DNA of 63,169 nucleotides, filler included, from Reticulomyxa filosa (lineage: Eukaryota > Protista > Foraminifera): NCBI GenBank assembly GCA_000512085.1. It is 16 parts of 16 records of this genome, joined end to end, with 100 filler letters (N's around TTAATTAATTAA, not from the genome) between each part and the next. Parts side by side here need not be neighbours in the genome. Positions count along the whole stretch, not along the records: positions 1,101 to 14,511 come from ASPP01024628.1; 15 more parts are not named here. One strand, 5' to 3'. Under the pieces are notes generated by a model. That model was not told where the DNA came from, did no database searches, and was given only the letters and a program-made list of their open reading frames with translations. The translations under genes were made by a program, and so were the position numbers. This document shows, piece after piece, positions 11,020 to 11,877 of the stretch (the first letter of the stretch is position 1; the number at the start of each line of letters is the position of its first letter).

Positions 11020-11877
11020 GCAAACATGTCGACTACGTATATCTTCTTTGATTGCTATGTATCTAACACGCCTTTTGATTGAATCATTTTTCAAATATTA
11101 TGCTACTGCTGTGAATATCATTGGAATTTTTGCTTGTATGCGTACATAAAGCTTATCTACTGATATGTCTGTGTTTTCATCAATATCTACTATGTTAATT
11201 TGATCATTAATTGATAAATTTCTAAAATATATTTTATCAAATAATATTCCATCATGCGTTGAAAATGATTTCAGTGTATATAAGTGTATCACTAACAGAG
11301 GTTTTTCAAACATACTGATTGTTAATTGTGTTTACGAACTCATGTATGTCTATGTAACTATAATGCATATTTATATTTATTCAAATTTATTAGTTCTTGT
11401 ATTTCTTTGAATTTGTATTTTGAAGATCTTTGATTACTTGATTCAGGTATGTTTGATACTATTGGTAAATTTCGATATAATCTTGGAATGTTTGTAATGT
11501 AAATTGAATCTTTTGTAAAATACTTTTATATTTCTTGTGCATTCCTATATGATTTATATTTTACATGATATATATTAACATTGTAATTGATGTCCAACAT
11601 ATCAGGTCTTGTTATTGTAAATTTCTCTGCCCATCGAATTTATGAACGTATGTATACAATACTCTTCGTTTTTTTCATTAGCTATTGCATATTTATCGAT
11701 TTGCCTTATCTCATTAAGTATTGTTAATACTTTATTTAATTCAATGTTACAATTTGTATATTCTAACAAATAATTTTTTGCATGTATCTTGAATTTTTTT
11801 TTAGTTTTATTTTGAATTTTCCTTTTTTCGTTGGAGGGCAGTAATATTCTTCGATATAATCTGTGTGTTCAACTCAT
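11020..11877 (-). pseudogene. rep: Endogenous CRESS-DNA virus/plasmid-like rolling-circle Rep (HUH endonuclease + SF3 helicase), decayed
   Basis: Manual translation gives KKFKIHAKNYLLEYTNC (motif I, 11758-11772); YAIANEKNEEYCIHTFI (motif II, 11650-11658); frameshift; WAEKFTITRPDMLDI..YHVKYKSYRNAQEI*KYFTKDSIYITN (motif III, 11511-11522); AL*LHRHT*VRK/TQL (decayed Walker A, 11331-11351); PLLV..HDGILFDK (Walker B, 11233-11250); PMIFTA (motif C); SIKRRVRYI (Arg finger, ~11060-11085). Confidence 0.85.

Follow-up and report, generated by a model that had tools for sequence, protein, structure and literature searches.

A decayed CRESSV6-like Rep gene in the foraminiferan Reticulomyxa filosa, probably captured from an ssDNA virus or plasmid

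In CRESS Reps, the tyrosine of motif III nicks a hairpin origin and an SF3 helicase unwinds the DNA during rolling-circle replication. For most CRESSV6-type sequences the host is unknown; we take CRESSV6 to be Geplanaviridae, an existing family within Geplafuvirales. CRESS elements in eukaryotes were reportedly surveyed by Zhao, Lavington and Duffy in 2021. The endogenous cressdnavirus elements of Blastocystis, Histomonas, Chromera, Polymyxa and oomycetes are Rep-only or decayed like the copy described here, but they belong to other Rep lineages and other hosts. Such protist Reps are used for host inference in the parts of PMC9615429, PMC10193959 and bioRxiv 10.64898/2026.04.22.720165 that were available; these parts mention no foraminiferan, and neither they nor those of the PMC7493932 supplements mention Reticulomyxa.

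The closest relative found is ETO15557.1 (UniRef X6MQ48; P0031 in our set), an intact protein of 516 amino acids on a single 2,232-base contig that is named 'rep [Reticulomyxa filosa]' at NCBI. Kazlauskas 2019 (PMC6668415) has it in the Pyropia pulchra-like group, nested in CRESSV6, with the organism unnamed in the main text, and a figure legend of the Craig 2022 preprint (bioRxiv 10.1101/2022.12.15.520654) gives R. filosa and Smittium as P. pulchra-like members. Since the protein is annotated as a Rep and is included in both sources, R. filosa had already been connected with this group of Reps. ETO15557.1 carries an N-terminal extension of about 200 residues, S/D/Q-rich and of low complexity, which is absent from most relatives, and it occupies about 70% of its contig, whose size is typical for a small ssDNA circle. 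Among the wider relatives, a terminal repeat and TAATATTAC (in a hairpin-like setting, or as the motif) were found in 5 of the 11 loci examined, and several of these relatives are true circles; the close relative L170 is a Rep-only contig of 1,432 bases that is not circular as assembled. With ETO15557.1 as the query, no close viral contig was found.

A broken Rep on a contig with a host gene

The window, i.e., the whole stretch of DNA analysed here (63,169 nucleotides, or 63 kb), consists of 16 separate contigs concatenated with N44-linker-N44 spacers (for example, at 14512-14611), so that pieces across a linker are not genomic neighbours. As shown in Table 1, one R. filosa contig carries a Rep with an HUH nuclease and an SF3 helicase, split into three frame pieces (A to C). 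Every Rep motif that the initial annotation had quoted was recovered by six-frame translation; all are on the minus strand and follow the canonical order. The several stops, at least two frameshifts and 71-aa ORF that it had described were found as four stops, two frameshifts and one ORF of that length. The interval that it had given for the element, 11020..11877, holds the Rep, but the homology is slightly narrower (about 11796-11035). The copy cannot make a full protein and most likely does nothing.

Table 1. Features of the Rep-bearing contig, in positions of the window
Feature	Position	Strand	Remark
R. filosa contig carrying the Rep	1101..14511		13,411 bases
Eukaryotic DENN-domain frame	1492-2040		
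Host gene RFI_28536	7036..10051	+	ankyrin repeats and Fe/2OG dioxygenase-like; 100% identity
Decayed Rep pseudogene	11035..11796	-	HUH nuclease and SF3 helicase; three frame pieces
Piece A	11638..11796	-	motif I and damaged motif II
Piece B	11334..11636	-	GRS-like stretch, motif III, shortened linker, broken Walker A
Piece C	11035..11331	-	helicase core; Walker B and motif C damaged, arginine finger intact
Motif I	11793-11749	-	six-frame translation; damaged
Motif II (HUH)	11661-11641	-	six-frame translation; damaged
GRS-like stretch	11621-11556	-	between motifs II and III; alignment; absent from the initial annotation
Motif III	11522-11508	-	single tyrosine; six-frame translation
Walker A remnant	11366-11323	-	six-frame translation
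Walker B	11256-11233	-	six-frame translation; damaged
Motif C	11124-11107	-	six-frame translation; damaged
Arginine finger	11082-11065	-	six-frame translation and alignment; intact
71-aa ORF	11313-11098	-
In-frame stops on the Rep path (4)	11528, 11360, 11342; 11100	-	piece B; piece C
Frameshifts (2)	near 11640; at 11331	-

RFI_28536 of R. filosa is 100% identical to the gene that ends at 10051, about 1 kb from the 3' end of the Rep on the same assembled contig. The tetranucleotide profile of this contig correlated with that of the rest of the window at r 0.65 (0.41-0.68 for the pieces above 2 kb). The flanking gene and the composition, which is like that of the other large pieces, both agree with the earlier assignment of the contig to a foraminiferan. 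The GC content of the Rep segment (23-28%) is similar to that of its flanks. The annotated RFI_28536 protein aligns to the DNA as two blocks with gaps in the first; residues around 405-500 of the model (7036-8430) are apparently translated from intron-like AT-rich DNA, so that this part of the model may be incorrect. Directly upstream of the Rep, the GC content at 11860-12200 rises to 32-35% from about 25% in the surroundings, with short plus-strand frames that resemble decayed coding sequence, and a plus-strand frame with few stops at 13221-13470 may be a further decayed coding stretch; neither region had a Pfam match.

Homology and placement among Reps

The nuclease half, with X at the breaks, matched Pfam Gemini_AL1 (PF00799) at 27.5 bits over positions 1-105 of the 113 in the model, for which the cut-off is 24 bits; piece A by itself gave a weak match under the cut-off (E 0.003). 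All five matches in a PDB search with the nuclease half were Rep proteins. In a search of 1.84 billion representative proteins, the same half gave 62 matches at E <=0.001 (best 4e-10), of which 59 were Rep-like by inspection and three were discarded as unrelated. Since this query stopped before Walker A, the helicase half provides a separate test. When the 59 Rep-like proteins were searched against the window with tblastn, ETO15557.1 was the best match for the helicase half (E 3e-18), with 44% identity over 101 aa of piece C. Profiles built from 14 intact relatives scored 36.9 and 36.5 bits on the two nuclease pieces, and the helicase profile scored 45.6 bits with the R. filosa protein excluded from it, compared to best scores of 3.2 bits elsewhere in the window and 6.4 bits among 200 dinucleotide shuffles. 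Of the two profile matches foreseen at the outset, Gemini_AL1 was thus obtained from Pfam and the SF3 helicase from the relatives' profile, but Pfam searches with pieces B and C separately gave no match, leaving the helicase unseen by Pfam.

Searching a protein word index with the broken pieces returned nothing, nor did tblastn of the Rep pieces against plasmids, and an Atlas search with piece A returned only matches below 0.8. Three weak Microviridae capsid matches (E 2) from a phage search with the Rep pieces were taken as chance. When single pieces were used to search for loci, the result was either empty or a single false match (L001, 1780-2931), a reverse transcriptase with an adjoining repeated stretch that resembles a diversity-generating retroelement and is unrelated to Rep.

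For the Rep phylogeny, 430 candidate proteins yielded 213 two-domain Reps, among which ETO15557.1 was the best blastp match of the fossil (123 bits, runner-up 99; 209 of the 213 had a blastp row). Clustering gave 77 rows plus the fossil, and the removal of six with a different helicase type left a 72-row quick tree, in which the fossil and ETO15557.1 paired at 95 SH-aLRT. In a 42-row set, hand-picked from the clustered rows with one Smittium row added, the pair was found at 87 SH-aLRT in a quick tree, and a careful tree placed the fossil as sister to ETO15557.1 with support of 100/95. The branch of the fossil is long (1.9), which makes its placement less sure, and the tree sets hold one pCRESS9 row and no Pyropia Reps, named CRESSV6 Reps or named genomovirus Reps. 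The two proteins share species, domain order and closest sequence besides their sister position, and they are 32% identical over 296 columns; ETO15557.1 is intact and has the long extension, whereas the fossil is broken, has a linker about 37 residues shorter and adjoins a host gene.

According to the supplement of PMC6668415, CRESSV6 and P. pulchra-like Reps have as a feature a GRS motif lying between motif II and motif III, and the P. pulchra plasmids retain the arginine finger, whereas geminiviruses, genomoviruses and pCRESS9 have replaced it. The fossil has a GRS-like stretch and an arginine finger and is sister to a listed member of the group. With CRESSV6 viruses, the P. pulchra plasmids and the Smittium Rep-like proteins it has in common the GRS-like stretch, the arginine finger and the helicase style. 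By these comparisons, the fossil groups with the P. pulchra-like/CRESSV6 side and not with geminiviruses. Helitron and Replitron transposases, which have a two-tyrosine Rep with an SF1 helicase or a Rep lacking a helicase (bioRxiv 10.1101/2022.12.15.520654), are ruled out by the single motif III tyrosine and the SF3-type helicase. Near the R. filosa pair lies a clade of mostly AT-rich environmental Reps (P0016, P0025, P0051, P0056, P0061, P0065 and L178), which may belong to plasmid-like elements from algae or from protists other than R. filosa. Three further proteins (P0018, P0027 and P0059) with a geminivirus/CRESSV6-like nuclease and a circovirus-like helicase, probably recombinants, were kept out of the trees.

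Decay and origin of the copy

We found that the fossil retains 20 of 31 scorable near-invariant columns, compared to 82-100% in the 17 intact relatives, each scored by leave-one-out; with its 4 stops and 2 frameshifts, it has the marks of decay under relaxed selection. Its FYMINK fraction is 0.45, compared to 0.27-0.37 in the Reps compared, and its residue make-up is shifted toward AT-rich codons. The base and residue composition of the fossil has drifted toward that of its AT-rich flanks. In a simple neutral model, the loss of conserved residues fits about 0.15-0.2 substitutions per base, whereas the four stops fit 0.05-0.15 better, this count lying toward the lower limit of what such residue loss would predict (P 0.05-0.17 at 0.15-0.2). 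This suggests about 0.1-0.2 substitutions per base since the death of the copy, a figure that is only rough because the two measures fit different ranges. The estimated decay alone would retain about 63-79% of the residues and the identity to ETO15557.1 is 32%; hence, identity between the donor and ETO15557.1 had probably been no more than about one half from the start, which makes the donor a probable cousin of ETO15557.1 rather than its parent.

In contrast to CRESSV6 viruses and the P. pulchra plasmids, the fossil has no capsid gene, origin or circular form that could be found around it. No relevant Pfam match to a capsid was seen in 12 flanking frames, and no convincing match was seen against 1,346 ORFs from the loci retrieved, although a capsid gene could have escaped notice if it had decayed or been captured only in part; the one outside match, at 11919-11704, was Rep motif I again. 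A nonanucleotide hairpin origin was not found near the Rep. The candidates TAGTATTAC (13069) and GAATATTAC (11849) form no hairpin, and nonamer-like sites of this kind occur at the chance rate, so neither was accepted as an origin. The only terminal or target-site repeats around the Rep were AT-rich chance pairs.

We consider, with a probability of about 0.85, that the locus is a broken CRESSV6/Pyropia-plasmid-like Rep from an ssDNA virus or plasmid of an R. filosa ancestor, which was captured in the chromosome and decayed without selection. It is improbable that, with no separate capture, a Rep gene or mobile element of the ETO15557.1 family, resident in the host, multiplied within the foraminiferan genome and left the fossil as a decayed duplicate. 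Such a duplicate would agree with the sister position of the fossil, with the 200-residue extension that sets ETO15557.1 apart from most relatives and with the failure to find a capsid near the fossil, but the observed identity is well below what decay alone would leave, nothing upstream of the fossil matches the extension, and terminal repeats are absent beyond the chance pairs.

The Rep segment could also be a contaminant or be mis-joined to the host contig, given that the draft assembly is fragmented (16 pieces in 63 kb), or the decayed copy may come from another eukaryote in the culture. We regard contamination or mis-joining as very improbable, since a free replicon could not retain a Rep with stops, frameshifts and lost catalytic residues, the composition of the Rep matches the flanking intergenic DNA, and the nearest intact relative is also from R. 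filosa. Hardly credible is a fossil of a geminivirus or phytoplasma pCRESS9 Rep acquired from plant material. Geminiviridae Reps do share the nuclease domain (PF00799) with the fossil, and a motif I very near to its own, and the Pfam model bears their name; however, Gemini_AL1 was also matched by 5/5 intact relatives scanned, the helicase differs and the arginine finger is kept. In addition, grouping the fossil with geminivirus-type Reps was rejected under the model used (AU p 0.001), in a constraint of four Reps called geminivirus-type from genome size and sequence rather than from labels, with pCRESS9 outside the AU test. The initial annotation had named a geminivirus/genomovirus/CRESSV6/pCRESS9 branch; an HUH and SF3 Rep of that branch is what we find, but not its geminivirus part.

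If the locus is a captured Rep, as we prefer, the donor would have been an ssDNA virus or plasmid with rolling-circle replication in an ancestor of this foraminiferan, and its Rep, as in other members of the family, would have nicked the origin with the motif III tyrosine and unwound the DNA with the SF3 helicase. Capture probably occurred via non-homologous repair or via Rep-mediated nicking and joining, and the copy would have decayed without function thereafter; neither a boundary nor a target-site repeat was recognised.

The R. filosa link and its meaning

The locus had been proposed as a pointer to the host of ssDNA replicons. The fossil does support the link with R. filosa, but this link was already public through ETO15557.1, and protist endogenous Reps are common, so the advance is incremental. 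What is new is a second, decayed and previously unannotated R. filosa Rep copy, flanked by host sequences in the assembled contig and sharing about 32% identity with ETO15557.1. No description of this decayed copy was found in the literature, where subscription papers, further datasets and bioRxiv supplements could contain one.

Taken alone, the intact Rep, on a 2.2-kb contig in a draft assembly of a protist, could be a contaminant. A decayed second copy on a contig with a host gene makes a true foraminiferan host likelier than contamination, and such a copy is stronger evidence for long-term replication of this branch in the foraminiferan line. In addition, the fossil gives a target for searches, namely circular DNA in R. 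filosa and members of this clade elsewhere in Foraminifera. A more speculative proposal, which we consider unlikely at present, is that Foraminifera host their own active lineage of CRESSV6-related ssDNA replicons; the fossil would then be the trace of an old infection, and ETO15557.1 would lie on a present-day free circle of this lineage, represented by its 2,232-base contig. If true, this would give Foraminifera their first known virus or plasmid.
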